64,000 bases of DNA from a virus (Duplodnaviria > Caudoviricetes), in IMG/VR virus record IMGVR_UViG_3300044557_000185, positions 1 through 64,000 of that record; one strand, 5' to 3'. Position 1 is the first letter of the stretch. Each line of letters starts with the position of its first letter. A program made the translations under genes and the position numbers. Of this stretch, positions 1,590 to 63,394 are shown piece by piece. Below the pieces are notes generated by a model that saw only the letters and a list, made by a program, of their open reading frames with translations, had not been told where the DNA came from and searched no databases.

Positions 1590-1669
1590 ACGTTTATCTC
1601 TGTTAATACTTAGTATACTATATATATAATTATATATACTTAAAATTCTAAGTCAACAGAGAACAACGT
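1590..1669 (+). repeat. 80-bp dyad element copy 1
   Basis: ACGTTTATCTCTGT...TATATATAATTATATATA...ACAGAGAACAACGT; axis at 1629/1630. Confidence 0.95.
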
Positions 1670-1676
1670 CGTTAAT

Positions 1677-4600
1677 CTATCTGTCTTGCTGAATAGACTT
1701 GTTGAACACATAATTGCATATAAATGATGGTGCGCCATTGAAATCGGAACTTCTTTTGCATGTAGTCGATACTAAGTCTCCAGTAGAAAGATAGTCTTTG
1801 AATTTAGAATACGAATTTGCAAATACTGTTATCTTGACTTCTTCTTGAGACACTAGCTTAAGCGTTACCCATGCCATCAAGCCATTCTTAGCATTCTTAG
1901 TCTTCGTAGATGTTATCTTGCCAGCAATCTTAGTAGATTCACCTACATCAGTCTTCATAAGACCAGCCATTGATTGAGGAGATTCAGACATAAGCCAGTC
2001 TTTGTTATCTAGAACATCGTCATATGACAATGATACACCTAGAAGTTCTTGCTCGATCTTAGCAATTATTCTGTCAGATTCGAAATTCTTCTTATATGGT
2101 TTTTCTAGTCCTTTAGATTCTGCAAATGCGCACATCAAATCATATCTGCTTCTTTCGTCTACTCCATCGAAAGCGCCTATTGATATAAGACTTTGAAGAA
2201 CATTCTTCTTTCGACCACCTCTTCCAGTAGTCTTGTCTAGAAAATCGTCGTATGATGAATATGGACCGTTATTGAGAATCTCGTCTACTGCTTTTCCACC
2301 GACTCCCTTTATCGACCACATGGGCATGTATATTGTATCATCGTCAACTACATATCTGTCTGTCGATTTGTTGACATTAGGCGTCTTTACACTGTATCCA
2401 CGAACTATAGCATATTTCAGAAAATCTGTCTGACCTGGATCTGTATTCAAAGATGCGCATATGAACTGCAATGGCCATCTGACCTTCATATATTGTTCGT
2501 ATGCTGTTATCATGCCGTAACTTTTTGCATGTGAAGCATTGAATGAATATTCTGCTGTTCTTGATATTCCAACCCATAGATCGTCAAGACATTCTTTAGG
2601 AGATGAATACTTCACAGGAACATTGTCTATGAAGCTCTTGTCATTAAGACATACATCATAAAGCAACTTCTTCATTGCAGGCACTTTAGTGACTTGCTTC
2701 TTAGAGAACACTTTCCTTACATTGTCTGCTTCTTCCATATTCATGTTGCATAGCCTAGAGTAGATCTTCATGATCTGTTCCTGATATACGACAAAGCCTG
2801 AAGTCTCTTCAAGAATAGAATCTGTGAATGGATGGTAGCTTGGACATCCCTCTTCGCCTTTTCTGACCTTGTAAAAGTCTTTGATAAGCCCACTTCGTAC
2901 AAGACCTGGTCGATCAACAGCTGTAATCATACCTGCATCAGACACTGAATTGATCATAGCATTAGTTGCAGTCGTCTTGCCTAGAGGTGTATCTAGCTGG
3001 AATATGCCCAAGACATCTCCATCCCATGTCGGCTTCCATATCTTAACGCCATCAAAAAGCTTGTCGTTTTGCATATCGGCATATATCGATTCGGGATCAA
3101 GTTTGCCATGTACGCTTTCATATACTTCACGCATAGTTCCAAGAGAAGAAAGCTTGAGAACATCATACTTTATGAATCCCATATCTGCAACTTGATCATG
3201 AGCAAATTGAGTCACTAGAATGCCTTGTGCAACACGAAGCGGCATCTTGCCAAGCAATGACTTCTTAGATATCACATAGCCTGATGCATGCACGCCATAT
3301 GTCCTGATTCTTCCACCGAAATTCCATGCTTCTTTGAAGTATTCTGTCTCATCTACTATCTTCTTGAGGTCTTCATCTTTAGATATGCATTCTATGAAAT
3401 CTTCATAAGTCTGAAGCTCCATGTATTCACCAGTATCCCAGCCTGTTGCAGCAATCTTTCGATTTAGATTGAATATGTCTGAAGAAGAGTATCCATGGAT
3501 AGCGAATACATCATGGACTGAAGTCGATATCTTGCCTTGCAGCTCTGTACCGATTCTGCACACATTCCATTCGCCCCAGCGTTTCTTAAGATATGCATCT
3601 ACTTGTGGAATGACTGAAGCTTCAAAATCGAGATCGATATCAGGACAGTCTTTGAAATCGAAACTAGAATCTAGCTCTTTCCCATATTCTGTATCATCTT
3701 CTTCATACAAAAGCTTCCATGCATCTTTACTTGTGCCATCAGATAGAGATATCTTTTCAGATGGTGAGAATTTCTTCCATCCATCTTCAAACTTGATGTT
3801 GACAGACGATACAACACGTCCTGCTGTAAGAAAACGTTCGAAATACAGACTGTTCTTTATCGGATCAATATTCGTAATTCTCAAGAAGTAGCATACTACT
3901 GAAGCTCCACTTGAACCACGTGCTACACCTAGCAACGAAGCTTTCTTGCCTACAACTCCATACTTAGAGCCATCTTCATCATCTGACAAGACAAAGTTGA
4001 CATAATCCCAGACAATAAGGAAGTATCCTGACAAGTCTGTCTTCTCTATAAGCTCAAGCTCTTTCTTAAGCTCTGCAATATATTCTTGAGCTTGATCTAC
4101 AGAAGGAATTCTTTCCCTAGCACCATCTAAGACAAGCTTTTCAAGCAGTCTGTCATCGTCTTCCTTAGAGTCACCATATCGTGGTGGAACCATACCGAAT
4201 TTGATTTTCGCATTGCAATGATCTGCAACCCATTGTGTATTATCAATAGCAGTCTGAATGTCTTCATCATCAAGACCATGCTTCTTTAGCCAATAGAAGC
4301 ATTCATCTTCAGACATAACCCAAGCAGCTGTCTCTCCACGACCGCTGGTCTTGTCATCATTCAGATCACTACCTTTTCCTGTAGTTGACTGCCATACAAG
4401 CTCATGCCAGCGATAGTCTTCTCTTTTTGCGTAATGAGCATCATTGACTGCTATAGTTCTAAGACCAAGCTTTTTAGCAATCTCAATCTTTACTTTGTTA
4501 GTCTTCGTCATTATGCGATTAAGATTGAACTGCTCTTCAGTCTTTGGATCGCAGAACTGCCAAGTATGAATCTCTACTAGAACATTGTCTTTTCCTACAG

Positions 4601-5174
4601 CATCAATTAGCTTCTTCTCCCATGCAACAGCACCTTTGATATCATCATTAGCTATGCATCTTGACACCCTAGAAAGCATGCAGCCGTCGGATATGAACAA
4701 GCCTTCGCCATACTTCTTAAGCATATTGAAGTCAATACGTGGCTTTCTGTAGAACCCTTCCGTATATGATAGAGTTGAAATAGTCCAAAGATTCTCCAAG
4801 CCTTTGTCATTCTGAGCCCATAAGCAACAATGATTGAAGTCTGAAGCTCTTTGCTTCTCTAATTCAGGTTCGCCAGTCTCTTTATTGTATTTGACCTTTC
4901 CAGCTCTAGTATGAGCTATCCTATCTGTCATGATATCATGAACATCATCTACAAGATATGACTCGATACCGAATATAGGCTTAATAGTAAGATTGTCATC
5001 TGACTGCTTAGCACATTCTTGCGCAAACTTGACATGAATTGCACAAGTTCCATGATCTGTTATAGCTACAGCATTCATGCCAAGACTTTTTGCTCTTGAT
5101 ACAAGTTCTTGACGAGTCTGAAAACCATCCAAACATGAAGAATCAAGATGTTGATGAAGTCCTATGTATGACAT
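1677..5174 (-). CDS. dnaE: DNA polymerase III alpha subunit (family C) with PHP domain
   Basis: HQH/AITDHG/NDAH PHP motifs, RGS, PDIDLDF, HASG, KYDVL, FNASHA, C-terminal OB fold. Confidence 0.97.
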   Translation of the reverse strand: MSYIGLHQHLDSSCLDGFQTRQELVSRAKSLGMNAVAITDHGTCAIHVKFAQECAKQSDDNLTIKPIFGIESYLVDDVHDIMTDRIAHTRAGKVKYNKETGEPELEKQRASDFNHCCLWAQNDKGLENLWTISTLSYTEGFYRKPRIDFNMLKKYGEGLFISDGCMLSRVSRCIANDDIKGAVAWEKKLIDAVGKDNVLVEIHTWQFCDPKTEEQFNLNRIMTKTNKVKIEIAKKLGLRTIAVNDAHYAKREDYRWHELVWQSTTGKGSDLNDDKTSGRGETAAWVMSEDECFYWLKKHGLDDEDIQTAIDNTQWVADHCNAKIKFGMVPPRYGDSKEDDDRLLEKLVLDGARERIPSVDQAQEYIAELKKELELIEKTDLSGYFLIVWDYVNFVLSDDEDGSKYGVVGKKASLLGVARGSSGASVVCYFLRITNIDPIKNSLYFERFLTAGRVVSSVNIKFEDGWKKFSPSEKISLSDGTSKDAWKLLYEEDDTEYGKELDSSFDFKDCPDIDLDFEASVIPQVDAYLKKRWGEWNVCRIGTELQGKISTSVHDVFAIHGYSSSDIFNLNRKIAATGWDTGEYMELQTYEDFIECISKDEDLKKIVDETEYFKEAWNFGGRIRTYGVHASGYVISKKSLLGKMPLRVAQGILVTQFAHDQVADMGFIKYDVLKLSSLGTMREVYESVHGKLDPESIYADMQNDKLFDGVKIWKPTWDGDVLGIFQLDTPLGKTTATNAMINSVSDAGMITAVDRPGLVRSGLIKDFYKVRKGEEGCPSYHPFTDSILEETSGFVVYQEQIMKIYSRLCNMNMEEADNVRKVFSKKQVTKVPAMKKLLYDVCLNDKSFIDNVPVKYSSPKECLDDLWVGISRTAEYSFNASHAKSYGMITAYEQYMKVRWPLQFICASLNTDPGQTDFLKYAIVRGYSVKTPNVNKSTDRYVVDDDTIYMPMWSIKGVGGKAVDEILNNGPYSSYDDFLDKTTGRGGRKKNVLQSLISIGAFDGVDERSRYDLMCAFAESKGLEKPYKKNFESDRIIAKIEQELLGVSLSYDDVLDNKDWLMSESPQSMAGLMKTDVGESTKIAGKITSTKTKNAKNGLMAWVTLKLVSQEEVKITVFANSYSKFKDYLSTGDLVSTTCKRSSDFNGAPSFICNYVFNKSIQQDR

Positions 5175-5711: not shown

Positions 5712-6620
5712 TTATATAACCATTCTGTTCTTTTGTACAATCTTAGTCCGATGTGTTATGTCTTCGAAGCAATACGCTGCAGCTTCATCTCTAGTCAATG
5801 GCATTGCTACACCTGCATCAGCTAGATATGATGATGCTCCTTGAATGAAACCCATTGGCGAAAGCCTGTATGTGTCTACTTCATCGAAAGCATATCGCCA
5901 TACAGTGTCTACTGTGTAAGCTGGACGAAAATTATACTCTTCAAGAAGCTTACTTGCTCCAGCTCTGGAAACTTCATAAGCTGTCGTATACCAAGCATTA
6001 TGCTTTCCATCAATTTTAGAAAACCAGAACGAAGTGTTCTTAGCGAATCTATTCGCATCAGATTGTGCAGATGTTACTGCTCCACCCCACACTAAAATGT
6101 CTGCATCTGGGATGTCAATTTCTTGATTCATGAAATCTCTAGCACGCGCATCGTCTTCAAGAATCATAAGCTTATTCAACGAAGTGCTAAGAAAAGCTTG
6201 CAAGATCTTTCTAGATGTCTGAGACAGGCTTTCCTGTGCAGCATACTGTTCAGGTGTCCAGACTGAATTAGCGTGAACGCTGCCACTCTTTCGCTTCTTG
6301 AAACGATCGGCACTTATCTTCTTGTACTGCTCTGAACATTTGAAGTAGCCTTTTTCATCGTAGCTTTCAGCTGATTCGATTAGCCGCATCTTCGCATCTA
6401 CGCCAGCTGAACGCATGTCATCGAAATGAACAGGCTCTACTCTTGTAAGACTTCTGAATGCATTGCCAAAATCATGTTCTATAGAGGCTCGTCTTTCTTT
6501 GGCTACATCTAAATTGATGTAGACTGCGTCAATTGTCTTGAAGTAGTCTCTTGGCTTCATAACAACCATGAAATTGTTCTTTCTAATTTGCGCTTGCTTG
6601 CAATTTTGCTTTATGCTCAA
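5712..6620 (-). CDS. Glycosyltransferase, GT25-like (true start probably ~6569)
   Basis: VYINLD..ERR, ILEDDA, TAYEVSRAGASKLL motifs. Confidence 0.78.
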   Translation of the reverse strand: MSIKQNCKQAQIRKNNFMVVMKPRDYFKTIDAVYINLDVAKERRASIEHDFGNAFRSLTRVEPVHFDDMRSAGVDAKMRLIESAESYDEKGYFKCSEQYKKISADRFKKRKSGSVHANSVWTPEQYAAQESLSQTSRKILQAFLSTSLNKLMILEDDARARDFMNQEIDIPDADILVWGGAVTSAQSDANRFAKNTSFWFSKIDGKHNAWYTTAYEVSRAGASKLLEEYNFRPAYTVDTVWRYAFDEVDTYRLSPMGFIQGASSYLADAGVAMPLTRDEAAAYCFEDITHRTKIVQKNRMVI

Positions 6621-7470
6621 TTACATTTCTGAAATCATATGTCTTTGCTTCATCTCTAGTCAATGGCATTCTGATGCCTTCTCTAGCTAGATACGATGAA
6701 TCGCCCTGAACGAAGCCCATTGGTGATAGACGATATGCAGTAGCTCTGTCTAATGTGTATCTGATAATAGTGTCTGTCGTATAAGCTGGAACAGAATTGA
6801 AGTCTTCAAGAAGCTTAGCTGCACCAGTTCTTGTGAACTCATAAGCAGTGCAGTACCATGCTGTACGCTTGCCACTTACTCTAAGAAAGTGAAAAGGCTG
6901 CTCGTTCATGAAATGCCTAGCATCTGTCTGAACTGAAGATGTAGCGCCTCCCCATGCTAAAATCTCTGCATCATCTGGTATGTCAATTTTGTCATCCATG
7001 AAATCTCTAGCACGAGCATCATCTTCGAAAACCATGATGCGATCTAATTCGCTAGCTAGAAAGTCTTTAAGAATTTGCTTGTATGTCTGAGACAAGCTTT
7101 CTTGAGCAGCATATTGTTCTGGTGTCCAGACTTCATTGACATATTTGCAGTCATTCTTTCTATGCTTGAAGTCTTCAATGTCTTCGATCTTATACTGATT
7201 CGAACGCTTGAAGTAGCCTTTTTCATCGTAGTTCTGCAAAGCATCCATAAGCCGCAACTTGGTATCTACACCAACAGCAAACTTGTCTTTGAAGTCTATT
7301 GGAACGACCCTTGTCAGACTTCTGAAAATGTTCGAGAAAGAATTCTCTATAGCTTCTCGTCTTTCTGTAGCTGCATCTAGATTGATATAGACTGCGTCTA
7401 GATTCTTGAAGTAGTCTTTTGGTTTGACATTAGTCACCTGAATACTTCCTCTCATCAATCGCATAAGCAA
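6583..7470 (-). CDS. Glycosyltransferase, GT25-like, tandem paralog (true start probably GTG ~7436)
   Basis: VYINLD..ERR, VFEDDA, TAYEFTRTGAAKLL; clearly homologous to its neighbour. Confidence 0.78.
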   Translation of the reverse strand: MLMRLMRGSIQVTNVKPKDYFKNLDAVYINLDAATERREAIENSFSNIFRSLTRVVPIDFKDKFAVGVDTKLRLMDALQNYDEKGYFKRSNQYKIEDIEDFKHRKNDCKYVNEVWTPEQYAAQESLSQTYKQILKDFLASELDRIMVFEDDARARDFMDDKIDIPDDAEILAWGGATSSVQTDARHFMNEQPFHFLRVSGKRTAWYCTAYEFTRTGAAKLLEDFNSVPAYTTDTIIRYTLDRATAYRLSPMGFVQGDSSYLAREGIRMPLTRDEAKTYDFRNVIEHKAKLQASAN

Positions 7471-8702: not shown

Positions 8703-8731
8703 ATTATATACCATATTTTTAGCAATGTAAA
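8703..8731 (-). promoter_or_regulatory. Sigma70/SigA-type phage promoter TTTACA-17-TATAAT
   Basis: Exact 17-bp spacing; member of a 10-copy family. Confidence 0.85.
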
Positions 8732-8732: not shown

Positions 8733-10223
8733 TCAACCGATAGAATTGACTCTTTCTTCAGACTTGAATAGTTGCTCATACCTGTTTCTTTCGAATCTGT
8801 CATCAGAGCAGATAAGCCAATAGAAGCATTTTCTTTTCTGGCCGATCCTGTGTATTCTCTTCTTTGCTTGTATGTAAGCATCAGATGGTATTGGAGAAGT
8901 GAATATCATCTTGTTTGCTTTCTGAAGATTAAGCCCTTTTGCACCAGACTGCCATTGGACTAACATCACAGAATTGTCATACTTGTCAAAGTAAGTTCTG
9001 TCTTTGACAGAACCATTCCATTCTGATACTTTTCGATTAGCTTTCTTGCAAATTCTCTTAAGTGCGTCTAATTCATCTACAAGCGAATACATTATGACAA
9101 AGCGATCTGATGACTTGCTAAGAAGAGCTTCTATAGCGTCAAGCTTGTTCTTGTTGTCTGCGCAAGAATTCATATGCTTTATCTTAGCAAGCATGCCTCT
9201 TTTTTCATTGTCGTCAATAGTGTTCTGCAACTTGTAGAATGCACCTTCATACTTCACTGCTTTCCTGTCTAATGCTACATATATGCTAGATATGACTGTC
9301 TCAGGCAAGTCTATGCAGTCTTCTGTCTTAAGATACACTGCTCCAGATTCAGAAGACTTCTTAAGCATCAAATCTATGTTCTTGTATCCAATAATTCTTT
9401 CGTCTTTGATTTTAGTGTATCCATATCTAGTCCTTACAGATTTGACACTAGGAATCTTTATAGTGAACATGTCTTCAAATTGCTCTTTAGAGCCAGTAAA
9501 GCCCTGAATAGTGAAGACTGGATAGAATTGCTCTAGTTTGCCGCCGTAGAAAGAGCCTGAAAGCATCTGAACATCAAAAGCATTCTTAGCTAGCTCTATA
9601 GACTTCTGCGTTCTCTTAGCTTCTATATGTCCTAGACAAGAAACTTCTTCAAGTATAAGAAAGTAGCGATTCTTCTTCAATTCTGAAAGATACACTTTGC
9701 AAGAATCTCGAAATATCTTGTCATAGTTTATGATTCGTATTCTGTCTTCTAGGTCTGGAGCAAACTTGTGTATTTCGCTCTTCCACTGGGACATCAGGCC
9801 TTTTTCGCATATGATCTGTATTGGATACTTCTGCCTTTGTATAGCAATATGAGCTAAAGATGAAGCAGTCTTTCCTGTGCCCATCTCCATGCCAAGATAT
9901 GAATGACGACTGTCTTTCAACGTCTTGACGACATCTTGCTGATGCTGATACAGAGGCAAAGACAGAACATCTCTATACTCATGCTTAGTGTCATGCTTGA
10001 TCGGAAATTTTATGCTCTTCTCCTGAGAAGAATACATAGAATCAAAATCGATAGCATTCGCTTCTGATATGCATGACTTCGGAACCCAAGACTCTGTTGC
10101 AATGCCTTTCAGAAGCACTGCCTTAGGTGTCTCTTTCATAGCATACAGCACTTCATCATCATCAGAGAAAAGCTCTAAAAACTTATGCGAAAGACATGCT
10201 TTCTTAACCTTGTCATATGCCAT
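8733..10223 (-). CDS. SNF2-family helicase
   Basis: EMGTGKT, SGAKGLNLQ, QAKKRIHRIGQ. Confidence 0.9.
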   Translation of the reverse strand: MAYDKVKKACLSHKFLELFSDDDEVLYAMKETPKAVLLKGIATESWVPKSCISEANAIDFDSMYSSQEKSIKFPIKHDTKHEYRDVLSLPLYQHQQDVVKTLKDSRHSYLGMEMGTGKTASSLAHIAIQRQKYPIQIICEKGLMSQWKSEIHKFAPDLEDRIRIINYDKIFRDSCKVYLSELKKNRYFLILEEVSCLGHIEAKRTQKSIELAKNAFDVQMLSGSFYGGKLEQFYPVFTIQGFTGSKEQFEDMFTIKIPSVKSVRTRYGYTKIKDERIIGYKNIDLMLKKSSESGAVYLKTEDCIDLPETVISSIYVALDRKAVKYEGAFYKLQNTIDDNEKRGMLAKIKHMNSCADNKNKLDAIEALLSKSSDRFVIMYSLVDELDALKRICKKANRKVSEWNGSVKDRTYFDKYDNSVMLVQWQSGAKGLNLQKANKMIFTSPIPSDAYIQAKKRIHRIGQKRKCFYWLICSDDRFERNRYEQLFKSEERVNSIG

Positions 10224-10246
10224 GATAGAGACTCCAGACAGCTAAA

Positions 10247-11200
10247 TCAGCGATAGTCCTCATCGAAAACCCATGGATAATCTGCTTCTGCTTGCTTTCT
10301 GATTGCTAGCAATTCATCTTTATACTTATTCAGCAACTTGATGAATGTCTTCTGACCTGGGATATGCAGAGGATCTGCATCGAATTTGAATTCAATGTCA
10401 TCATTCTCAAACTTGTCATTTTGCGGAAGTGGCTTGAAGAATCTAGAAGCAAAATTAGTCGTAGTCTCTTTGACATAGTACCAGTTAGTGTCATCAAAAT
10501 CGATAAGAGTTGCAAGCAAGGGCCATTTCTTGCACATAGCGACTGCAAGCTGAAGAGCAAAGACATTATCTGAACGCGGCTGGATCTGGGTGTCAATTCT
10601 TTGCGTGATCAGCCCCAATGCATTGCCTAAAGTCATACGAAGCATTACGAACTGATGGATGCCTCTTGGCAAGATAAGTCTTGCATCTTGCACGCTCATG
10701 CCAGAATTGATTGCTTTAGCATACAGATCCATTTGAAGTGTAGCAAGTGCTTCATACTCATGCGATAAGCCAAGCTCATTATAGGCTTCTGGCATAGAAA
10801 CATCATTGCGATTCTTGTAATTGTCTCCTGTGCATTCTACTGCGAAAGAAGCATTCCTGTTTCGCAGTGTGTGCGAAAGATCGTGTGCTGTCATTCCATC
10901 GACAGAAAACACTACGTTAACGAATTCTAGATATTGAGGCAGGAACTTCTTTCGTAGTGCTCTATACATAAGAGCATCTTTCTGATGCTCAGTGAAGTCA
11001 TACTCATCTGACTTAGCAGCCCATGTTGACATGATAGCATCTGGAAGAAAAGCTTTAGCTTCTTCCCATGTCGGCATGTATCTTAGATTGACATCAATAG
11101 CGGTCAAATCATTGACGACATTGCTTCTATTCTTGATATGCTCATTCGGAAAGCGAGAGTCATTCACTTCGAATTTCTTAGAGCGAGACTTAACGGTCAT
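10247..11200 (-). CDS. thyX: Flavin-dependent thymidylate synthase-like protein (divergent)
   Basis: LEF, SHTLRNRNASF, QDARLILP motifs. Confidence 0.8.
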   Translation of the reverse strand: MTVKSRSKKFEVNDSRFPNEHIKNRSNVVNDLTAIDVNLRYMPTWEEAKAFLPDAIMSTWAAKSDEYDFTEHQKDALMYRALRKKFLPQYLEFVNVVFSVDGMTAHDLSHTLRNRNASFAVECTGDNYKNRNDVSMPEAYNELGLSHEYEALATLQMDLYAKAINSGMSVQDARLILPRGIHQFVMLRMTLGNALGLITQRIDTQIQPRSDNVFALQLAVAMCKKWPLLATLIDFDDTNWYYVKETTTNFASRFFKPLPQNDKFENDDIEFKFDADPLHIPGQKTFIKLLNKYKDELLAIRKQAEADYPWVFDEDYR

Positions 11201-11270: not shown

Positions 11271-11344
11271 ATCGCAATCTTGCTGACTGCATATCATCTA
11301 TATTTGTATACTACATATTGACCATGTATATCATCAGATTAATG

Positions 11345-11424
11345 AGGTTTATCTCTGTGAACTTAACATGCCAAAGATATATAATTATATATACTTACTA
11401 TCTTAAGTTCACATAGAACAACGT
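11345..11424 (+). repeat. 80-bp dyad element copy 2
   Basis: AGGTTTATCTCTGTGAACTTAA...ATATATAATTATATAT...TTAAGTTCACATAGAACAACGT. Confidence 0.95.
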
Positions 11425-11432
11425 CGTTACTT

Positions 11433-11888
11433 CTAGAATAGCACGCTTGTCTTGTCTACATCATCAGTCCAAGTATTGCCATCCTTAAGCTTTCCAACAC
11501 GACCATCTGCTAGGCCATGCACGACTTGCCACTGGAGTTTGTCGTAGTCTGTCTCTTGCTTAGCTTTCTTAGCATCGTATCTGCCAAGAAGACTGACTTT
11601 GGGAGTCCACATCATAGTGCCATCAGAATACATAGTCCAGTTGTCTTCATCCTTTATGTTGGATGATACGAAGCACTGATATCCCAATGCATTGATTCTG
11701 CTTATCAATCTTTCTGCAAAATGTCTTGCTGAGCTTTCGATAGCATTTGCTGAATCAGCTGCATCAAATGAAGACTTCGTCTGATAGCTGTTCGATTCTG
11801 CAGTGATAGCATTCTTTATGTCAAGTCGTTCTGACGGCATTAGATTGACTTTCGAATCTGATACGAACAATCCGTCTATATTCTGCAT
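11433..11888 (-). CDS. Hypothetical protein
   Basis: 151 aa, GAAAGG RBS. Confidence 0.75.
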   Translation of the reverse strand: MQNIDGLFVSDSKVNLMPSERLDIKNAITAESNSYQTKSSFDAADSANAIESSARHFAERLISRINALGYQCFVSSNIKDEDNWTMYSDGTMMWTPKVSLLGRYDAKKAKQETDYDKLQWQVVHGLADGRVGKLKDGNTWTDDVDKTSVLF

Positions 11889-17289: not shown

Positions 17290-17760
17290 CTCACATGCGC
17301 GGGCCCCTGCCTAGCCCAATGATAGATCGCGCATGCGCATACATGCATCTGACCGCTGCGCGGGCAACGTGAGGCGTGAGTGATGTGTGCGAGCACACGT
17401 ATATGTATGTATGCACATGTATCATGTATGTATGTATGTATGTATGCATATGTATCGTATACGCATGTATCTATCTGAAAGATAGATATATTACGTGTGT
17501 GCATGTATGTATGTTTTCATGTATTCTCATATATGTTTTCATGTATTTTTTATATGTATTTTTTATGTATATTCATATATTTTTCTGCATGTGCACGTGT
17601 ACGTATCTATCTGAAAGATAGATAGATAAACGTGTATATGTGCCGACGTGTCTGTGCATGCATGTACGTATGCATGTCTGCATGTGCGAGAGAGTGTGCA
17701 AGGAGACAGAAAAAGAATGCATGTGTGTGAGCATGCAAGCTAGCATATGCATGCAAGTGA
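17290..17760. repeat. Alternating purine-pyrimidine low-complexity tract with (ATGT)n and two TATCTATCTGAAAGATAGATA hairpins
   Basis: Seen directly; hairpins at ~17468-17488 and ~17604-17624. Confidence 0.9.
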
Positions 17761-17819
17761 GCTGCGAGAAAGCTTCTGCTAGCTAATGTGAAGGAATTGT
17801 GAAATATTTCAAAAAATGG

Positions 17820-17848
17820 TTTACATTAGTGAAAATGTATGTTACTAT
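17820..17848 (+). promoter_or_regulatory. Phage promoter TTTACA-17-TACTAT with extended -10 TG
   Basis: Right member of a divergent pair. Confidence 0.75.
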
Positions 17849-18333
17849 TCAAAATATAAATCAAAAACAACCTATTTGAAAGGACATCAGAAATACATCA
17901 AAGCATCTTGTTCTGCTTTCACAAATACATTCATTAGCATGGAATGATGCAGAAGCATCAGATTGCGCGTAACCCAGCTAGAAACTGATTAGACGCTTCT
18001 GGTCAATGCTTCGAACAAAGCACAATTTGCATAAGATGAGAAAGTACTTGACATAGCTGACAATCTAGTGAGCATGCAGCAAATATGATGTGGAGAGATG
18101 CCCATATGATGCTGATCGTGCGGTAGCAGAGGCCAGATGGTTGAGACATTCATAATGCAACACAGATATTCTGTATAGGCATTTGCCTACATGGCGCTCC
18201 TGGCGTCATGAGACTAAGAGCAGAGTCAATAGGATATCATCTTACGAAGAGCACAAGCATCATAGCACACTTTAAGAATAGCAGCAGAAGACAAGTCTTT
18301 GAATCATGAGAAGTCAATCAGGAGAACACTTAG

Positions 18334-18867
18334 TTGAACATCATATATTTGCAGACAGCATTATTTGCTGCAATTGCAATATTAGCGATAGTAGTCTTGC
18401 ATTACGTCAAGCAGACATGCAAACTAGTACAATACGATAAGAAGATTGATGCATTCTATCTTCAGAATTCAGGTCTTTCATACTTTCGATTGAGTGAGAA
18501 GTCTCATAGCTATATACCTGTCTTGTGCAGCAATGATGATGAACATTATAAGCTTCTGTCAAGTCTTGGCTATGAAATGATGGGATACGATGGATCTGAA
18601 GCTCAAAAAGTCGGTGCTACGGCTATAGAAAATGGCAGAGCATGCTTCATCTTAGACGGCAGAAACGTAAGCAAAAGAAAGACGCAATTGTATGCTGACA
18701 GGCAGTTCTTCATTGACGATGACTGCATAATCATCAATACATGCAAGACACTTGGGCTAGCGCTTGCAATAAGAATGACTAATGCTAACGGATCAGCAAA
18801 AGAATGCTTCAAGTCAGAACTAGAAAAGATGATTGACGTCATCAAGAATAACGACGTTGTTCTCTAA
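18334..18867 (+). CDS. Membrane-anchored hypothetical protein
   Basis: AGGAG RBS, N-terminal hydrophobic helix; last codons are encoded by dyad element copy 3. Confidence 0.75.
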   Translation: MNIIYLQTALFAAIAILAIVVLHYVKQTCKLVQYDKKIDAFYLQNSGLSYFRLSEKSHSYIPVLCSNDDEHYKLLSSLGYEMMGYDGSEAQKVGATAIENGRACFILDGRNVSKRKTQLYADRQFFIDDDCIIINTCKTLGLALAIRMTNANGSAKECFKSELEKMIDVIKNNDVVL

Positions 18868-18933
18868 TAATACATAATCTTAAGTATTATAAATTATATA
18901 TACTTATACTTCTGAGTTCATAGAGATAAACGT
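18854..18933 (-). repeat. 80-bp dyad element copy 3
   Basis: ACGTTGTTCTCTA...TATTATAAATTATATAT...GTTCATAGAGATAAACGT. Confidence 0.95.
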
Positions 18934-19029
18934 CGTTAATCCTGGATACGTTTCTATTTAGATTGAAACATAACATCAACACAAACAATCGAAAAGTAAA
19001 AGAATTGATCAGAATGTTCTGAATCTGAT

Positions 19030-19058
19030 TTTACAAAGATCGGTTTTTGGTATATAAT
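19030..19058 (+). promoter_or_regulatory. Phage promoter TTTACA-17-TATAAT driving tnpB
   Basis: Same consensus as the other phage promoters. Confidence 0.85.
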
Positions 19059-19093
19059 AAAACTATGATGAATAGATTGGTAGGTGACATATC

Positions 19094-20380
19094 ATGATGA
19101 ATTATGAAACCCGCCTGTCTAAGAATCGTAAGATTGCTCAGCATGGAAAAGATACTCGCAATCGTAGAAAGAATCAAGACTGTAAAGTCTTCTCTATCAA
19201 GATTCAGACTAACAAATTAAGCCATATTCAGAAAGAACAGCTTAAGATGCTGTTTGTTGAAGCAAAATGGCTTAAGAACGATATTCTTGCTAAAGGTGTC
19301 AAAGGCTACGTAATCGGTAACCAAGTCGATGTCAAGACTCCTACTGGTTATGTATCAAGGAAGTTTGAATATCTTGGATCTAGAATTCGTCAGTCTGTTC
19401 TTGCTGAAATAAAGCAAAACATTAAAGCATTGTCAGTTCTAAAAAAGAAGGGTCGGCATGTAGGAAAGCTTAAGTTTGTTTCTGAAGTTGCAGAACTTGA
19501 TCTAGCTCAGTATGGAAAAACATATACGATTAAAGCTAATAAAGTTCATATTCAGAAAGTTCATGGATGGATGCTTGCTGGTGGAACAGATCAAGTTCAA
19601 GGCTATGAACTTGCAAATGCAAAGCTATTGAGCAAACCAGATGGATACTATCTGAACGTTACATGCTTCAGAGACAAACAAGAAGATGCATTCTTGAAAG
19701 ACTCAGCTATCGGTATCGATATGGGTGTCAAAACTCACATTACAATGTCTGATGGAACTAAGATCAAAGCAACAGTTGAAGAAACTGAGCACCTGAGACG
19801 ACTTAAGCAGAAACTATCTCGTCAAGAAAAGGGCTCTAACAGCTATTGCAAGACTAAGGTCCAGATCAGAAGACAGTATCAGAAGCTGACAAACAAAAAG
19901 AACGACATATCTAATCATATAGCAAACTATCTATTGCGATACAATCATGTATGCATGCAAGACGAGAACATAAAGTCTTGGAAGACAAAGAAGTCTTTGT
20001 CTCGTGGTTCAAGAACGATTCAGCATTCGATCTTGGGTAGAGTCAAAGCTAGACTTGTTCGTAATCCTAGGACTATTGTTCTTGACAGGTTTGAGCCAAC
20101 AACAAAGCTATGCAAGTGTGGTTTTAAGAACAGCGTATCTTTGTATGACAGAACATACCATTGCAACGTATGTGGCTATACAAATGATAGAGATGTTCAT
20201 GCAGCACAGAATATGATTAGAATTGCTGAACAGAATAATAGACTTGTACCTATGGAGCATAGGGACTTTAAGCCAGTGGAGAGCTTGTTAGACGTATTGA
20301 CGGAATTTGCTGATACGCAGAACTCTATGAAGCTGGAAGTAGTTAGCTTGTCTAACTACAACTCATTAGAATTGTACTAG
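19094..20380 (+). CDS. tnpB: TnpB RNA-guided endonuclease (IS200/IS605/IS607 family), no TnpA partner in window
   Basis: IGIDMG (RuvC-I), MQDENIK, TTKLCKCG..CNVCG zinc ribbon, DRDVHAAQN (RuvC-III). Confidence 0.93.
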   Translation: MMNYETRLSKNRKIAQHGKDTRNRRKNQDCKVFSIKIQTNKLSHIQKEQLKMLFVEAKWLKNDILAKGVKGYVIGNQVDVKTPTGYVSRKFEYLGSRIRQSVLAEIKQNIKALSVLKKKGRHVGKLKFVSEVAELDLAQYGKTYTIKANKVHIQKVHGWMLAGGTDQVQGYELANAKLLSKPDGYYLNVTCFRDKQEDAFLKDSAIGIDMGVKTHITMSDGTKIKATVEETEHLRRLKQKLSRQEKGSNSYCKTKVQIRRQYQKLTNKKNDISNHIANYLLRYNHVCMQDENIKSWKTKKSLSRGSRTIQHSILGRVKARLVRNPRTIVLDRFEPTTKLCKCGFKNSVSLYDRTYHCNVCGYTNDRDVHAAQNMIRIAEQNNRLVPMEHRDFKPVESLLDVLTEFADTQNSMKLEVVSLSNYNSLELY

Positions 20381-20385
20381 CGATG
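20245..20385 (+). ncRNA. Putative TnpB omegaRNA (scaffold overlapping the 3' end of tnpB, plus guide ~20366-20385)
   Basis: Hairpins CCTATG-GAG-CATAGG (20249-63) and GTAGTTAG-CTTGT-CTAACTAC (20339-59) after ATGAAGCTGGAA, ending AACTCA; layout typical of TnpB right ends; boundaries inferred. Confidence 0.6.
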
Positions 20386-20391
20386 TCACCA

Positions 20392-20427
20392 GATTAACGA
20401 CGTTTATCTCTATGAACTCAGAAGTAT
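20392..20427 (+). repeat. Half dyad element (copy 4); perfect 36-bp inverted repeat of 18906-18941
   Basis: GATTAACGACGTTTATCTCTATGAACTCAGAAGTAT. Confidence 0.95.
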
Positions 20428-30672: not shown

Positions 30673-30755
30673 AGCTCGTCTCCTAACTTTGCTGCTGCTT
30701 ATAATATAATTATATCAATCTCTTAAGCATAGCGATGTTTTGCACTGTATTGACT

Positions 30756-30835
30756 ACGTTTATCTCTAGTAACATCAAAAGATTAGTATATATAATTATA
30801 TATCTTCATACATCTAGGTTCACAGAGATAAACGT
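30756..30835 (-). repeat. 80-bp dyad element copy 5
   Basis: ACGTTTATCTCTAG...TATATATAATTATATAT...GTTCACAGAGATAAACGT. Confidence 0.95.
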
Positions 30836-30873
30836 CGTAACACTGTGGATATAGCTAGATAGCTTGCTATATA

Positions 30874-33206: not shown

Positions 33207-33290
33207 TATGATTTCTCCTTGTAGTTTGTATCCTATATATATAATTATATCATACTTGCAGTTTTTAAGAATGCAGATGAATAAAGCAGA

Positions 33291-35119: not shown

Positions 35120-35158
35120 ATACTGGGCATATTTACTACTAGATACTTAATATTTACG

Positions 35159-35238
35159 ACGTTGTTCTATAGTGATCTAGAATCTGAAGTATTATAAATT
35201 ATATATACTTAATACTAGCGATACACAGATAACAACGT
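35159..35238 (-). repeat. 80-bp dyad element copy 6
   Basis: ACGTTGTTCTATAGTG...TATTATAAATTATATAT...CACAGATAACAACGT. Confidence 0.93.
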
Positions 35239-35282
35239 CGTTAATCTGAGGGCATACTAGATTCTTATCTATAAATGAATAT

Positions 35283-39450: not shown

Positions 39451-39478
39451 TAGAATCTCCTTTTTGTTTGAAATTACG

Positions 39479-39558
39479 ACGTTGTTCTCTGTGGACTTAA
39501 TTCGGTCTATATATATAATTATATATCTTCATACATCTATGTTCACAGAGATAAACGT
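39479..39558 (-). repeat. 80-bp dyad element copy 7
   Basis: ACGTTGTTCTCTGTGGAC...TATATATAATTATATAT...GTTCACAGAGATAAACGT. Confidence 0.95.
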
Positions 39559-39596
39559 CGTTATTCTTGGATATAGCTAGAATAACTTGCTATATA

Positions 39597-52241: not shown

Positions 52242-52327
52242 TTGATTCTGTCACCTTTTTGTGTTTGCCATCTTTATATGATTATATCAAAGATATGTTT
52301 TGATTGCAGTAGTAGTCGATATTAATG

Positions 52328-52406
52328 ACGTTGTTCTCTGTTGATACAAAATTTTAGTATATATAATTATATACATTCTATACTAGATGTTCACAGAGAT
52401 AAACGT
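52328..52406 (-). repeat. Dyad element copy 8 (79 bp)
   Basis: ACGTTGTTCTCTGTTG...TATATATAATTATATA...GTTCACAGAGATAAACGT. Confidence 0.95.
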
Positions 52407-52445
52407 GATGATTCTGATGATATACTGAATGACATTCTAATATCA

Positions 52446-53768: not shown

Positions 53769-53805
53769 ATCCTATCTTTATACTCAGTATATACTCAGAA
53801 TTATC

Positions 53806-53885
53806 ACGTTTATCTCTGTGAACATAGCATATCATGTCTATATAATTATATATACTCAAAAATCTAAGTTAACAGAGAACAACGT
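53806..53885 (+). repeat. 80-bp dyad element copy 9
   Basis: ACGTTTATCTCTGTGAAC...CTATATAATTATATATA...GTTAACAGAGAACAACGT. Confidence 0.95.
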
Positions 53886-53891
53886 CGTAAT

Positions 53892-55736: not shown

Positions 55737-56660
55737 TTATCTTTCTTTAGTAAGAGCATTTCTATAATTGTCAATTTCTTGCTCCTTAAAGAGCTTGAAA
55801 GTCATATCGTGTTCTTTGCAATATTCCTTTGCAGCTTGAACTTTAATCTGAACATTTGCAAAGGTGACAGTATATGCAGACTTAATTTCGACTAAGTCTT
55901 TGTGACCATCTTTGAAGGTGACAAGAAAGTCTGGAAAATAACGATGCCCCGTTGGAAGCTGTATCGTAAAGTTAGGTCTATCAAAATCTTGAATGCTGTC
56001 ATCCTTCAACATAAGCTCGCAGAAAGTCTGTTCGTAAGTCGAATCTGTAGGAATAGTCTTACCAGACTTTGTGATAGCTTTACCACGTATACCATTCCAT
56101 TTTTCAATCATAGCTATTCTTTCTTCATCAGAAAGATTCGCCCAACGCTCTTTTACTATTTCACTCATTAGAGCTCTATGTTCTGGTGATCTGGCTATAG
56201 CTCGTTTCTTTGCAAAGCATTCAGGAGTATGAAGCTTATAATTGTCTTTATGCAAACGATACTGTTCTTTAGCTAGTTCTCTAAGCTTTTTATTAGCTTC
56301 TGGCGTGCTTAGTGCTTCATGAATGTGTTGACAACGAACAGCTTTCTTTTCAGGATCTTCCCAAGATCGCTTGATATTCTTTGCATATCTAGCTTTGTAT
56401 TCTGGATCGTTATTGCGCTTAGATATGCTTTCAGACAAACGCTTCCTATAATCTTCATTCTGCCAGTTTCGCTTTGACAGTTCCGAAAGCTTTTCTCTTA
56501 CTTCTGGCGTATTCAGTGCCTTTTTAGTATTTTGAGAGATCTTTCTAGAAACATCTGGATTATGCTTGTTTGCTTTATGATTGTGATAGCCTCGTATGTT
56601 CTTGCATTCTTTATTGCATATTTCGCAAATTACCACGACATCCTCCGTTCCCACTCTCAA
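55737..56660 (-). CDS. Free-standing homing endonuclease (NUMOD-like repeats plus PD-(D/E)XK, TnsA-like)
   Basis: C2H2 finger, helical repeats, DSTYE, YFPDFLV..VEIKS. Confidence 0.78.
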   Translation of the reverse strand: MRVGTEDVVVICEICNKECKNIRGYHNHKANKHNPDVSRKISQNTKKALNTPEVREKLSELSKRNWQNEDYRKRLSESISKRNNDPEYKARYAKNIKRSWEDPEKKAVRCQHIHEALSTPEANKKLRELAKEQYRLHKDNYKLHTPECFAKKRAIARSPEHRALMSEIVKERWANLSDEERIAMIEKWNGIRGKAITKSGKTIPTDSTYEQTFCELMLKDDSIQDFDRPNFTIQLPTGHRYFPDFLVTFKDGHKDLVEIKSAYTVTFANVQIKVQAAKEYCKEHDMTFKLFKEQEIDNYRNALTKER

Positions 56661-58958: not shown

Positions 58959-60281
58959 CTACTTGCTCTTCTCAGGCATCATCGAAAGAGTGCCATCAGA
59001 ATTGTTGACAGACATGAGCGACATCTCTGGAAGATATGTTATGTCAGACGATGACGAGAATGACTTCATTCTGTACTGATGCCCGCTTACTTGCCCTCCA
59101 GATGCTATTATGCTCTTAGACTGCTCTAGCTCGTACTCATTCTGGCTGTCGTACTGGAAAGTGTATGACGACCCGTCTTTGTTCAGAGCTGGAGCACTCA
59201 ATGGAGTCTTTCCGTACTTGCCACCAGGGAAGTTGTCAGGAGAGTCTATCCTGTCGAACTGCTTCCAGTCAGACCACTGTATCGACGAAGTCTTCTCGGA
59301 GAAGCTAGTCTCGTCTTTTGTCGTAGACTCGTATTCCGACTGGTATGAGATGTTCTTTATCTGAGTGTTGTTTGACTTGTCGTACACATAGTACTCAGAA
59401 TACTCTTGCGTCCTGTTCTCTATGTTCTTACGTACTTCTGCTTGATCACCAAGATTAAGATTGAAGTTTGCATCGTAGCCATAAGCTATCTCATCAAACA
59501 AGTATTCTGGAGGTGGCAGCTTAGATGAGTCTACTGCATTAGTCAGAGTCTTGACTATCTCGAAGTATGACGAAGATGCAGATATGTCTCTTAGATCGTC
59601 CTCTTTGTATGATGCAAGTCCGTTTGTGTCTATAGTGACGATGACATCTGCAGGCTTGATCCTGTCTAAGACTCTCAGAAGCAGGTCTTTCTGCTGAGGA
59701 GTTATGTCTTTGTTGTCTGGGACTATGACTACTTCATTTCTGAGAAGATACTGCATTCTGCCGACAGTCTCATCGCGCTTCTCATAGCGCCAAGTCTCGT
59801 ACATCTCACAGTCATCGAATGTGACAGACCTCACTGCTTCCTTGAAGCCTTTGACAGTACCGCCATCATTCATAGCGCGCATCATGTCGACGAAGCGCTC
59901 TTTGTACCATGACTCCTTGACTAGAGCTTCATTAGCTTCATCTACTGTAAGCAACGCTGCATCAGTATCGAACGAAGTCTTTTCTGAGTATACTCTTGGA
60001 AGCCCGTATATGGAAGCAAAAAGCTGGTCTACAAATCCAAGCCAAGCTGTTTCTACACCACCATTTAGCCAGTCTTTTACAGAAGCTGCTAGAAGCTGTC
60101 CAAAGCCTGCTTGTCCACATACTACTTCTACAATGTGCCTTAGATGGCTTGAAGCTGTCTTGTCATATACGTCATCATCAAAATGAGCCATTATGCTGTC
60201 TATGTCAATAGATGACAGCACTGGCAGCGTAGAGGGCATGAAGACCATGTCCTGGCCAAGAGAGCTTTCTTGCTCAGTCAT
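58959..60281 (-). CDS. Baseplate wedge protein (P2 gpI-like)
   Basis: YGLPR, GGT..G, RIKPAD motifs; adjacent to J. Confidence 0.65.
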   Translation of the reverse strand: MTEQESSLGQDMVFMPSTLPVLSSIDIDSIMAHFDDDVYDKTASSHLRHIVEVVCGQAGFGQLLAASVKDWLNGGVETAWLGFVDQLFASIYGLPRVYSEKTSFDTDAALLTVDEANEALVKESWYKERFVDMMRAMNDGGTVKGFKEAVRSVTFDDCEMYETWRYEKRDETVGRMQYLLRNEVVIVPDNKDITPQQKDLLLRVLDRIKPADVIVTIDTNGLASYKEDDLRDISASSSYFEIVKTLTNAVDSSKLPPPEYLFDEIAYGYDANFNLNLGDQAEVRKNIENRTQEYSEYYVYDKSNNTQIKNISYQSEYESTTKDETSFSEKTSSIQWSDWKQFDRIDSPDNFPGGKYGKTPLSAPALNKDGSSYTFQYDSQNEYELEQSKSIIASGGQVSGHQYRMKSFSSSSDITYLPEMSLMSVNNSDGTLSMMPEKSK

Positions 60282-62005: not shown

Positions 62006-62095
62006 ATAGTGGATTTACTAGTCTATATAATTATATGGATACTAAACAACGATTTCAATCTGGATAAACCTGACAACAACTGGAATGCTTCAGAT

Positions 62096-62124
62096 TTTAC
62101 TTTTATACAATTATGCTATATAAT
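62096..62124 (+). promoter_or_regulatory. Phage promoter TTTACT-17-TATAAT
   Basis: Exact spacing. Confidence 0.8.
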
Positions 62125-62350
62125 ACAACTACAAAAACAAAATCAGAAAGTAACTTCAAAAGCAAGTAATTTTGCTATACTAACTTCCACTTTTTCGCAA
62201 TAGCTTTAGATGTCAATAAAAGACGAAGTACATAGCTTCGTAGACGATTTTGCATTTAATGTATTGACGGGCAATTTCTATTATTGCACTTTTTGCATGC
62301 AGAGCAATAATTATATTTTTAAAGAATATAATTATTTGTATGCTTGTGAT

Positions 62351-62379
62351 TTTACTTTGATAAAAATATGGTATATAAT
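62351..62379 (+). promoter_or_regulatory. Phage promoter TTTACT-17-TATAAT
   Basis: Upstream of 62425. Confidence 0.85.
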
Positions 62380-62424
62380 ATAATTATAAACCAATAAAGG
62401 TTTATACAAAAAGAAGGAATCAAA

Positions 62425-62898
62425 ATGCAAGACTACGATTATTCGATGACTAAAAGCACTTATAAAGGTGTTAGCTATTATGAAGCTGAAGGTCAGACTG
62501 AAGCTTATGATCTTGGAAAGACCACTATTGACATTCTTAATGACAATAAAGATCGACTTCTTAGCAATGGTAATGAAACAGTAATCTTCAATGGTTATTC
62601 TGAATCTGGCTATTATTGCAAGAGCATTAAAATGTCAAATGCAATTGTCTATTCTCCAATTGAGAAGAATATCAAGTCTGTTCTTTATGCTAAAGACGAA
62701 TTCTTGTCAAGTGACAATTATGATTCAGAAAACGATTATGCAATGGCTCTGCAATCATATCTAATCGAACGAAAGAAGCAAATTGTAGCTCGTGGTGGAT
62801 ATGCAAAGATTGGGCTTTCATTCTATATGGAGTCTATGACATTAGACTCTGATATCGTAGATGAGATTGTGCATATGAATGATAGCCTATTGATGTGA
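62425..62898 (+). CDS. Hypothetical early protein
   Basis: AAGGA RBS and promoter. Confidence 0.8.
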   Translation: MQDYDYSMTKSTYKGVSYYEAEGQTEAYDLGKTTIDILNDNKDRLLSNGNETVIFNGYSESGYYCKSIKMSNAIVYSPIEKNIKSVLYAKDEFLSSDNYDSENDYAMALQSYLIERKKQIVARGGYAKIGLSFYMESMTLDSDIVDEIVHMNDSLLM

Positions 62899-63308
62899 TT
62901 TTAAGAAAGACAGAAAGAATTGGAAAAATGAGCGTTTCTGCTCAGCAGATACACTGGCTTGACATAGCTACAGAACTTGCTAAGCTCAGTTCATGCAAGA
63001 AGAAACACGGTGCTTTAGTCGTAAGAAGCAACAATGTTCTGTCTGTCGGAATCAACAAGATGCGAAACAATCCTGCATACATGCTAGACAGACCATCAGG
63101 CATATCTGTTCATGCTGAAGAGCAAGCTTTGAAGGCATGCAGAGGTGATGCAGGCAATTCTACTATCTACGTAGCTAGAGTCTATTCTGATGGCACAGCC
63201 ACGATGTCTAAGCCATGCAAGAGATGCCAGAAGCTGATGAAAGCAGCTAACGTAAAGAATGCAGTGTATACAGACTGGCATGGCAATGCTTGCATCATGC
63301 ATGTATGA
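62895..63308 (+). CDS. Cytidine/dCMP deaminase-family protein (start possibly 62928)
   Basis: HGALVV, HAEEQAL, PCKRC zinc motifs. Confidence 0.85.
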   Translation: MILRKTERIGKMSVSAQQIHWLDIATELAKLSSCKKKHGALVVRSNNVLSVGINKMRNNPAYMLDRPSGISVHAEEQALKACRGDAGNSTIYVARVYSDGTATMSKPCKRCQKLMKAANVKNAVYTDWHGNACIMHV

Positions 63309-63314
63309 TTTACG

Positions 63315-63394
63315 ACGTTGTTCTATGTGAACTTGAAGTATTAGGTCTATATAATTTATAATACCTATTACTGAAGTATCACACGATTAAACGT
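63315..63394 (-). repeat. 80-bp dyad element copy 10 (between convergent genes)
   Basis: ACGTTGTTCTATGTGAAC...CTATATAATTTATAATA...CACACGATTAAACGT. Confidence 0.93.

Follow-up and report, generated by a model that had tools for sequence, protein, structure and literature searches.

Dispersed regulatory cassettes organise the expression programme of large lytic phages and are also sites of genome reshuffling. The closest described examples are the PeSL (promoter-early stem-loop) composite promoter-terminator cassettes of T4-type phages. These conserved intergenic units are short and recur throughout a large myovirus genome; they combine a stem-loop with a sigma-70-type promoter and are located at indel and gene-replacement boundaries between close relatives (PMC2839356, PMC4122927). 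Here we analyse a family of dyad-symmetric elements, referred to as dyads, in a 64-kb stretch of viral DNA (the window), which forms the first part of virus record IMGVR_UViG_3300044557_000185, a single contig of 108,378 bp with 40.9% G+C. On balance, we favour the view that the dyads would act as composite promoter/boundary cassettes that punctuate transcription, using host RNA polymerase together with an arm-binding factor.

The dyads share no sequence similarity with PeSL cassettes and belong to a different lineage, their relatives being actinophages. As in PeSL cassettes, hairpin potential occurs together with promoter anatomy; however, the PeSL promoter accompanies a small stem-loop, whereas here the promoter lies inside the palindrome and is duplicated in mirror image. 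Also, the PeSL motif clusters in hyperplastic regions, whereas the dyads punctuate the whole genome, core structural genes included, and they have a fixed 86-bp span with arms conserved in sequence rather than in pairing.

Bacterial bidirectional promoters provide a second point of comparison. They are defined by divergent transcription starts 7–25 bp apart, most commonly 18 bp (Warman et al. 2021 as cited in PMC10268837; PMC12825309), a form in which −7T and −11A are reciprocally paired (PMC10268837; PMC12825309), and their pseudo-symmetric AT-rich core binds polymerase either way (PMC10268837). The ~15 bp predicted between the starts of a dyad falls within this 7–25 bp range, and the 18-bp form is impossible here because the dyad is an even palindrome centred between AA and TT. 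Unlike the dyads, ordinary bidirectional promoters lack conserved 21-bp flanking arms and are expected at divergent, not convergent, genes.

The stoperators of Cluster A mycobacteriophages, many intergenic protein-binding sites in an actinophage genome that stop elongating polymerase, are a precedent for a dispersed boundary signal based on a protein roadblock (PMC9283540, PMC6550527), and a functional analogy to them is possible. Stoperators, however, are single asymmetric sites of 13–14 bp bound by the immunity repressor of temperate phages, whereas in the present genome no integrase was found, no repressor was recognised in Pfam/PHROG scans of the open reading frames (ORFs), and the sites are paired and inverted around a promoter. 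The promoter-carrying repeats of halovirus HF2 (PMC8707807) and the palindromes of Cluster O mycobacteriophages (PMC4351075) are likewise conserved intergenic repeats of tens of bp dispersed in a tailed-virus genome, with a regulatory role shown for the former and proposed for the latter. Both differ from the dyads in sequence, in length (58/29 bp in HF2) and in host domain or lineage, and neither has the two-promoter mirror or the 86-bp span. The Cluster O palindrome is reportedly 17 bp long.

The Correia repeat-enclosed elements of Neisseria are palindromes of ~100–150 bp that lie between genes and have conserved inverted arms; they supply promoters and RNase III-sensitive hairpins, can terminate transcription, and are miniature inverted-repeat transposable elements (MITEs) with target-site duplications and presence/absence polymorphism. 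The dyads resemble them as palindromic intergenic elements with conserved inverted arms and promoter-like sequence, but signs of mobility are not seen for the dyads, whose orthologous positions are occupied. To our knowledge, the dyad has not been described before; by type, it has its place among the known dispersed promoter/terminator cassettes of large phages. The novelty lies in its design, a mirror-image double promoter of fixed 86-bp span with sequence-conserved arms, used at nearly every boundary including convergent ones.

Copies and geometry of the dyads

A previous sequence-only reading of the window had listed nine full copies and one half copy, and alignment confirmed all ten places. 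The 80-bp span given there (79 bp in one copy) corresponds to 86 and 85 bp here, as we measure three bases further out, from ACGACG to CGTCGT. The half-site pattern was matched 18 times in the window, compared with 0.88 ± 0.90 matches in dinucleotide-preserving shuffles, of which 0 out of 100 reached 18. Eight window copies span 86 bp and the copy at 52325 spans 85 bp, with a weaker symmetry extending ~14 bp beyond each border (consensus CAGATTA directly before ACGACG), giving ~114 bp in total. The complete genome contains 14 clear dyads and one decayed copy near 78,966, all of them intergenic, besides an arm-less shorter palindrome at 72,876–72,985 and a solo arm at 20,392–20,427. The elements of the window, with one adjacent promoter, are the following.

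1587–1672: dyad copy 1, 86 bp, between the stop of the PolIII-alpha gene (1677) and the next minus-strand genes; right half TTGACT-16-TATAAT
11342–11427: dyad copy 2, 86 bp, 6 bp past the stop of ORF 11433–11888
11270–11242, minus strand: separate TTTACT-17-TATAAT promoter just downstream of dyad copy 2
18851–18936: dyad copy 3, 86 bp, left arm containing the stop codon of a 177-aa ORF (plus strand)
20392–20427, plus strand: solo arm (half copy), a perfect 36-bp inverted duplicate of 18906–18941 (right arm and flank of dyad 18851)
30753–30838: dyad copy 4, 86 bp, upstream of the leftward-running tail-gene block
35156–35241: dyad copy 5, 86 bp, polar core with the perfect TATAAT on the minus (sense) half
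39476–39561: dyad copy 6, 86 bp, with the start of ORF 38317–39450 lying 26 nt downstream
52325–52409: dyad copy 7, 85 bp (all other window copies have 86 bp), left half one base short
53803–53888: dyad copy 8, 86 bp, 4 bp past the stop of the tail-sheath gene (53892), with the next gene start 35 nt on
63312–63397: dyad copy 9, 86 bp, between convergent genes, right arm partly decayed and spacers pairing unusually well

This geometry is rigid. Across this genome and its relatives, the span is exactly 86 bp in 109 of 112 copies (67/70 and 42/42 in two sets), and 13 of the 14 copies in the complete sister genome G001 have it as well. Inner spacers vary freely in sequence at a fixed length, as had been noted before: measured from ACGACG to TATATAAT, the distance is 36 in 94 of the 97 half sites. 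Such rigid spacing is typical of the geometry of polymerase and activators.

Each half of a dyad resembles a promoter

From its border toward the axis, a half consists of the flank (C)AGATTA, a Box A (ACGACGTT), a dimorphic TA or GT, TCTCT, a −35-like G-T-G/T-A/G-A-C, a semi-conserved TTAGAAT, a free spacer and (A)GTATATATAA at the axis, with Box A and TCTCTG forming the most informative columns of the half-site alignment. TATAAT is found at offsets 38–43 in both halves of most copies, and the AATT axis is conserved at 99%. Read as a promoter, a half shows TGAACA, TTGACT or TTAACT, a spacing of 16 bp and TATAAT, amounting to 10–11 out of 12 consensus matches (the −35-like element is TTGAC in ~30% of the arms and TGAAC in the remainder), with Box A at roughly −50 to −36. 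Judged by its sequence, each half is a near-consensus promoter of the sigma-70/sigma-A type. The two −10 hexamers overlap by two bases at the AATT axis, and the predicted starts would therefore be divergent and ~15 bp apart.

The phage carries two other promoter classes. The first, (GAT)TTTAC(A/T)-N17-TATAAT, often preceded by TG, is located mostly in the early region at 75–108 kb and also at window positions 8731, 13797, 17268, 19030 and 62005, and it fronts the early region, tnpB and a few other genes. The second is TGnTATAAT without a −35 element, for example at 33244 and 60414. The dyad core, TATATAAT-TATA, has the same −10 context as both of these classes and is, for this reason, most plausibly a genuine −10 serving both strands.

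Variant forms were also observed. The arm-less palindrome at 72876–72985 retains the outer flank (CAGATTAA/TTAATCTG) as well as the TATATAATTATATA core, is devoid of Box A and of the TCTCTGTGAAC block on both sides, and is conserved in close relatives. In dyads 71708, 78924 and 82619, and at loci L035, L036 and L039 of relatives, one arm reads ...GAACAATCTG... in place of ...GAACAACGTCGTTAATCTG..., which is the expected product of a clean 8-bp deletion of the Box A core. This form occurs on either side of a dyad, upstream or downstream, so that loss of one Box A is possible.

Dyads are located at gene boundaries

The outer edge of a dyad usually lies 4–20 bp past the upstream stop codon, with an overlap in some cases, and the next start codon follows 26–340 nt on, with most dyads lying upstream of a co-directional gene. 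About 20 of the 90 unique dyads are placed between convergent ORFs, against two doubtful divergent cases; true divergent junctions of this genome carry ordinary promoters, not dyads. The convergent placement reported for the copy at 63312 was verified, with a dCMP-deaminase-like ORF at 62895–63308 (plus strand) facing an 833-aa ORF from 63431 (minus strand). Similarly, in relatives without tnpB, dyad 18851 lies between the 177-aa ORF and the converging gene of a 2418-aa tail protein.

The sequence-only reading had taken its convergent copy as an argument against a plain promoter. This is correct insofar as convergent copies are real and numerous, so that the element is more than a promoter; however, promoter-like halves are retained, as indicated by their sigma-70 anatomy and by the polarity seen in the sister clade (13:2 and 7:1, see below). 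Tested as intrinsic terminators, the dyads showed no T-run after them, their flanks being TAATCTG or AACTCTGAG, and a consensus scan detected terminator-like hairpins with T-runs at chance level only and none at dyads. Taken together, the stop-abutting edges, the convergent copies and the chance-level terminators suggest a boundary function besides initiation, and the dyads are probably also boundary or stop signals.

The element is conserved in two clades and polar in one

Using exact-pattern scans, we detected the element in about ten IMG/VR contigs and 27 metagenome stretches, some of them labelled human gut. The carriers comprise a close group, with ~90–95% nucleotide identity to this genome, and a sister clade, whose shared proteins are only 23–60% identical (~40%) and whose complete genome G001 (116,040 bp) contains 14 dyads with the same Box A. 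The two clades share ~64 proteins, and the half-site consensus is identical across them. In 185,579 prokaryote genomes, the full half-site had 0 matches, and Box A plus the −35 element had 2, which is about the random expectation. The motif is also absent from the nearest outgroup (IMGVR_UViG_3300003155_000137, or L089; structural protein 56% identical), which has a G+C content of 60% versus 41–42% in the dyad-bearing clades, and the repeat is absent from the wider relatives reached through the structural protein, high-GC actinophage-like contigs among which the low-GC dyad-bearing lineage is nested. Being kept across both clades and absent from prokaryote genomes and the outgroup, the element is, on this distribution, a clade-specific and strongly maintained signal. 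The family is unusually clean, with one rigid 86-bp design in 14 copies per genome, kept letter for letter at ~40% protein identity.

Most cores in the sister clade are asymmetric, with a perfect TATAAT in one half and GGATAAT, within a conserved stretch, in the other. The weakened GGATAAT half is on the antisense side in 13 of the 15 asymmetric dyads of that clade, and in 7 of 8 in G001, while polar dyads keep both outer arms and the 86-bp span. Additionally, at sister locus L011 the homologue of gene 58959–60281 is preceded by a dyad at a distance of 60 nt, where this genome has a plain TGATATAAT promoter. The polarity and this equivalence support initiation toward the downstream gene.

The arms look like protein sites rather than a selected hairpin

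Fixed geometry combined with free spacers had previously been interpreted as a sign of protein half-sites and not of a selected hairpin, and our data agree with this interpretation. At variable positions, arm-arm identity within a dyad amounts to 875 matches, compared with 898 ± 24.5 for shuffled partners (43 non-redundant dyads), showing no excess of arm complementarity, and the span is kept nearly throughout (109/112). Because the arms vary independently, selection does not act on their base pairing; and because the sequence is free while the length is fixed, a rigid protein-DNA complex is indicated. The TA and GT arm types combine freely and are heterotypic in 20 of 43 clusters, which puts a 2×2 mismatch in the would-be stem. 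An apparent excess of heterotypic pairing in this genome (11/13) was gone in a larger set (20/35) and was discarded.

These observations bear directly on an RNA-only element, in which a hairpin of the arms would terminate transcription, be cut by RNase III or protect 3′ ends, with the promoter-like core serving as an AT-rich loop. Several findings would suit such an element: a folding energy of −29 to −35 kcal/mol for the 114-nt elements (z −3.8 to −6.3), the position of dyads next to stop codons and at convergent junctions, the lack of detectable ordinary terminators, and the separate downstream promoter of three dyads. We nevertheless consider it unlikely, given that deviations in one arm are never compensated in the other, that heterotypic arms disturb the stem, and that the supposed loop is the best conserved AT motif and is constant in length, neither of which a hairpin requires. 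Moreover, core asymmetry tracks gene direction, a U-tract is lacking, and the window has no match in Rfam. As each arm is constrained on its own, the lack of compensation is compatible with a secondary use of the hairpin.

A proposed composite promoter and boundary cassette

In the model that we favour, the anatomy, rigid geometry, arm independence, positions, conservation and breakpoints of the dyads are observed, and initiation, stopping and the existence of an arm-binding factor are what we infer. A cassette would consist of two 43-bp promoter units back to back, their −10 hexamers overlapping at the AATT axis, each unit comprising Box A (ACGACGTT-TA/GT-TCTCT), a −35-like TGAAC/TTGAC, 16–17 bp and TATAAT. 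Host RNA polymerase with its primary sigma factor would bind the core and start the next operon, with divergent starts predicted ~7 nt beyond each TATAAT and hence ~15 bp apart. A sequence-specific factor recognising the two inverted 21-bp arms at their fixed distance would set the timing or block read-through, and in any read-through RNA the arms could pair into the hairpin of −29 to −35 kcal/mol. With initiation at the core and stopping by the arm factor or the hairpin, a single cassette would end the preceding transcription unit, from whichever direction it comes, and begin the following one. Secondarily, because the arms are the longest sequences common to otherwise diverged relatives, homologous exchange would take place at them, and tnpB and homing-endonuclease genes would land there.

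Several points weigh against this model. This genome's own clade shows no sense/antisense difference in the quality of the −10 or of Box A, and convergent dyads would fire antisense into both neighbours if both halves were active. Three dyads are followed within ~16–80 bp by a separate classical promoter, next to which a strong internal promoter would be redundant. The exact spacing kept in polar dyads gives the downstream arm a role beyond that of a promoter. Termination by RNA alone is doubtful because no U-tract follows the hairpin. Conservation of the arms between clades could come partly from exchange between co-infecting phages instead of selection. Also, Pfam/PHROG batch scans of ~90 ORFs gave no candidate for the arm-binding protein.

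Among possible regulators, sigma-70 region 2 and 4 domains were not found in the complete genome, and a search for a T7-type RNA polymerase gave no match, its positive control likewise remaining unmatched. The only recognisable transcription factor common to both clades is a WhiB-like protein at genome position 102139–102444 (minus strand; Pfam 28.7 bits, above the cut-off), with 44% identity in the sister clade. A protein with a double helix-turn-helix (genome 92223–92684) was considered as an arm-binder and rejected, as it is probably small-terminase- or transposase-like and was not found in four sister-clade genomes.

If the composite cassette model is true, synthetic biology in actinobacteria would gain a compact natural 'stop-and-restart' part from the dyad, which would also give a handle on a new regulator and a worked example of a conserved promoter repeat turned into a docking site for tnpB and homing genes; the interest would be wider if the arms bound a factor able to read modified DNA. 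A bolder version, which we hold to be rather unlikely in its entirety, makes the arms operators for a new phage factor that clamps the AT-rich bidirectional core. The resulting symmetric 86-bp nucleoprotein switch would insulate, time and fire every non-early operon, possibly reading modified cytosines in the CpG-rich Box A and perhaps opening the core for replication priming, as a phage counterpart of baculovirus hrs. The idea of modified-base reading was raised by the CpG-rich Box A together with several nucleotide-modifying genes in the genome, and it is speculation. Should such a switch exist, it would constitute a genome-wide cis-regulatory architecture of a new class, and a new family of DNA-binding proteins would stand behind it.

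A possible role as architectural or replication sites

The arrangement of inverted boxes around a meltable AT palindrome could also mark origins, enhancers or genome-organising sites, with core transcription possibly priming replication, a role to which we assign little probability. Its layout, two box types around a (TA)n-AATT-(TA)n core at a fixed distance, resembles viral origins such as herpesvirus oriS and baculovirus hrs, whose organisation is well established; in addition, the copy at genome 97475 adjoins DnaB/DnaC-like genes, and a DNA-bound complex fits the rigid geometry and the independent arms. The 14–15 copies, however, are all exactly at gene ends, as for transcription signals, core polarity with gene direction is not expected of origins, and GC skew, in a coarse analysis, shows no local switches at the copies. 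No origin-binding, initiator or ParB-like protein was recognised among the scanned proteins, with no search aimed at ParB. Distributed origins had been among the roles proposed for the dyads earlier, and no result points to them.

Exchange and gene insertion at the dyads

Synteny breakpoints between relatives, which the sequence-only reading had singled out for checking, coincide with copies, as boundaries of indels and cassettes fall at dyads. One insertion in the window concerns the following gene.

19094–20380, plus strand: tnpB gene (OrfB_IS605 and Cas12f-like TNB domain), inserted beside dyad copy 3

This gene does not belong to the element itself, but it marks the dyad as a hotspot of insertion. 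The insertion as a whole, 18,942–20,390, is missing from three close-relative loci (L003, L016, L022), and contigs of two other samples lack it too; the solo arm at 20392–20427 stands at its 3′ end, abutting the tail-gene stop. A second tnpB (genome 70,371–71,666, minus strand) is missing from two close-relative loci, a third is found in relative L007 (~9195–10470) in the mini-palindrome locus, and a gene like the first tnpB abuts a different arm in two further samples. The 603-aa ORF at 33291–35102 (minus strand), which carries a NUMOD3 motif and is homing-endonuclease-like, is lacking in relative L006, where an unrelated 225-aa ORF on the opposite strand takes its place; this indel is bounded by the outer (left) edge of the dyad at 35156. 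At genome 78966, the break of one cassette swap coincides with the dyad axis. Flanking of indels in the manner of PeSL cassettes is therefore seen for both tnpB genes of this genome, for that of L007, for the 33291–35102 gene and for the swap at the 78966 axis.

The three tnpB genes are ~70–73% alike in DNA and share their 3′ end as far as ...TAGTTCAT or ...CAACTCAT; beyond that point they have different flanks. Each of them adjoins a dyad or the mini-palindrome, and each is missing there in some close relative.

It seems, accordingly, that genes preferentially land at or home to the dyads. Between orthologous dyads the differences, at up to 31 of 86 bases, are clustered in patches, with flanks that are 84–99% identical, and this patchiness suggests copying between dyads. 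The breakpoints look as if a conserved repeat had undergone homologous exchange and selfish-gene insertion, and not like the product of a dedicated recombination system. The exchange pattern matches that described for the PeSL cassettes of T4-type phages (PMC2839356, PMC4122927) and requires no dedicated recombinase. Short Logan contigs of four samples, broken at repeats, contained joints that were mostly cross-matches between copies, with no interpretable inversion joints.

A further alternative is that the dyads are themselves selfish palindromic mobile elements (MITE/PATE-like), moved in trans by, for example, IS200/IS605-type machinery related to the resident tnpB and bearing promoter-like sequence incidentally, in the manner of Correia elements. 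This would fit with tnpB adjoining dyads at three or four independent positions, with the solo arm duplicate flanking tnpB and with the patchwise change of orthologous dyads. It is very improbable, however, since every checkable dyad is occupied at the orthologous position in close relatives and neither clean-edged presence/absence polymorphism nor target duplications were seen. Likewise, the copy number is 14 in both genomes at ~40% protein identity, the element ends differ from the tnpB element ends, tnpB is missing from most relatives although these keep all of their dyads, and no TnpA or other transposase was found, only tnpB.

Serine (PF00239) and tyrosine (PF00589) recombinases are absent from the complete genome, with positive controls detected; the protelomerase family was not searched. 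The earlier statement that no recombinase is encoded in the window consequently extends to the whole genome for these two families, but has to be amended for TnpB, a RuvC-type nuclease, at 19094–20380. Dedicated sites of site-specific recombination, resolution or telomere resolution (res, attP or tel-like), also proposed earlier, draw on the dyad symmetry with its AT axis, on homology breakpoints at a dyad edge or axis between relatives and on a Holliday-junction-resolvase-like gene (genome 102994–103578), yet we find them scarcely credible in a genome without resolvase or integrase-type recombinase (protelomerase aside), with direct terminal repeats in place of hairpin ends and a gene order that is collinear between close relatives except for indels, which 14–15 active sites in both orientations would scramble, and in which the contigs of four samples gave only copy cross-matches and tnpB presence/absence.

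The phage genome and further observations

The virus record has direct terminal repeats, is 100% complete according to CheckV, and originates from bioreactor-sludge metagenomes. Almost all genes are carried on the minus strand, and crude ORF calls cover ~92% of the genome. Replication-type genes encode a DnaE-type polymerase (PolIII-alpha), an NAD ligase, a SNF2 helicase and DnaB- and DnaC-like proteins; structural genes encode portal-, sheath- and baseplate-like proteins and the 2418-aa tail protein. Other genes include several nucleotide-metabolism enzymes, glycosyltransferases, the two tnpB genes and the one WhiB-like factor. No nucleotide match was found among GenBank phages, and at the protein level matches to actinophage PolIII have only ~30% identity. 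By structural protein, the closest relatives are large actinophage myoviruses and high-GC contigs. The phage is an uncultivated 108-kb actinophage-like myovirus, and these structural-protein relatives make an actinobacterial host likely. The WhiB-like protein also points to an actinobacterial host.

PolIII-alpha is 1526 aa long in sister genome G001 (104265–108845) versus 1165 aa here, and a free-standing 307-aa ORF at 55737–56660 (minus strand) matches part of the longer sister protein (32% over 114 aa); an inserted intein or endonuclease-like module may be involved in the longer form. At a divergent junction, ~800 bp of the window (17505–18333) are without a convincing ORF, rich in short repeats (CATGTAT, GCATGTG, ACGTGT) and marked by a 25-bp inverted repeat at 17588–17640; this is a possible packaging or origin region. 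Finally, the adjacent paralogous ORFs 5712–6620 and 6583–7470 (minus strand) both match one gene of the sister genome, with 45% and 40% identity, and represent a tandem duplication.

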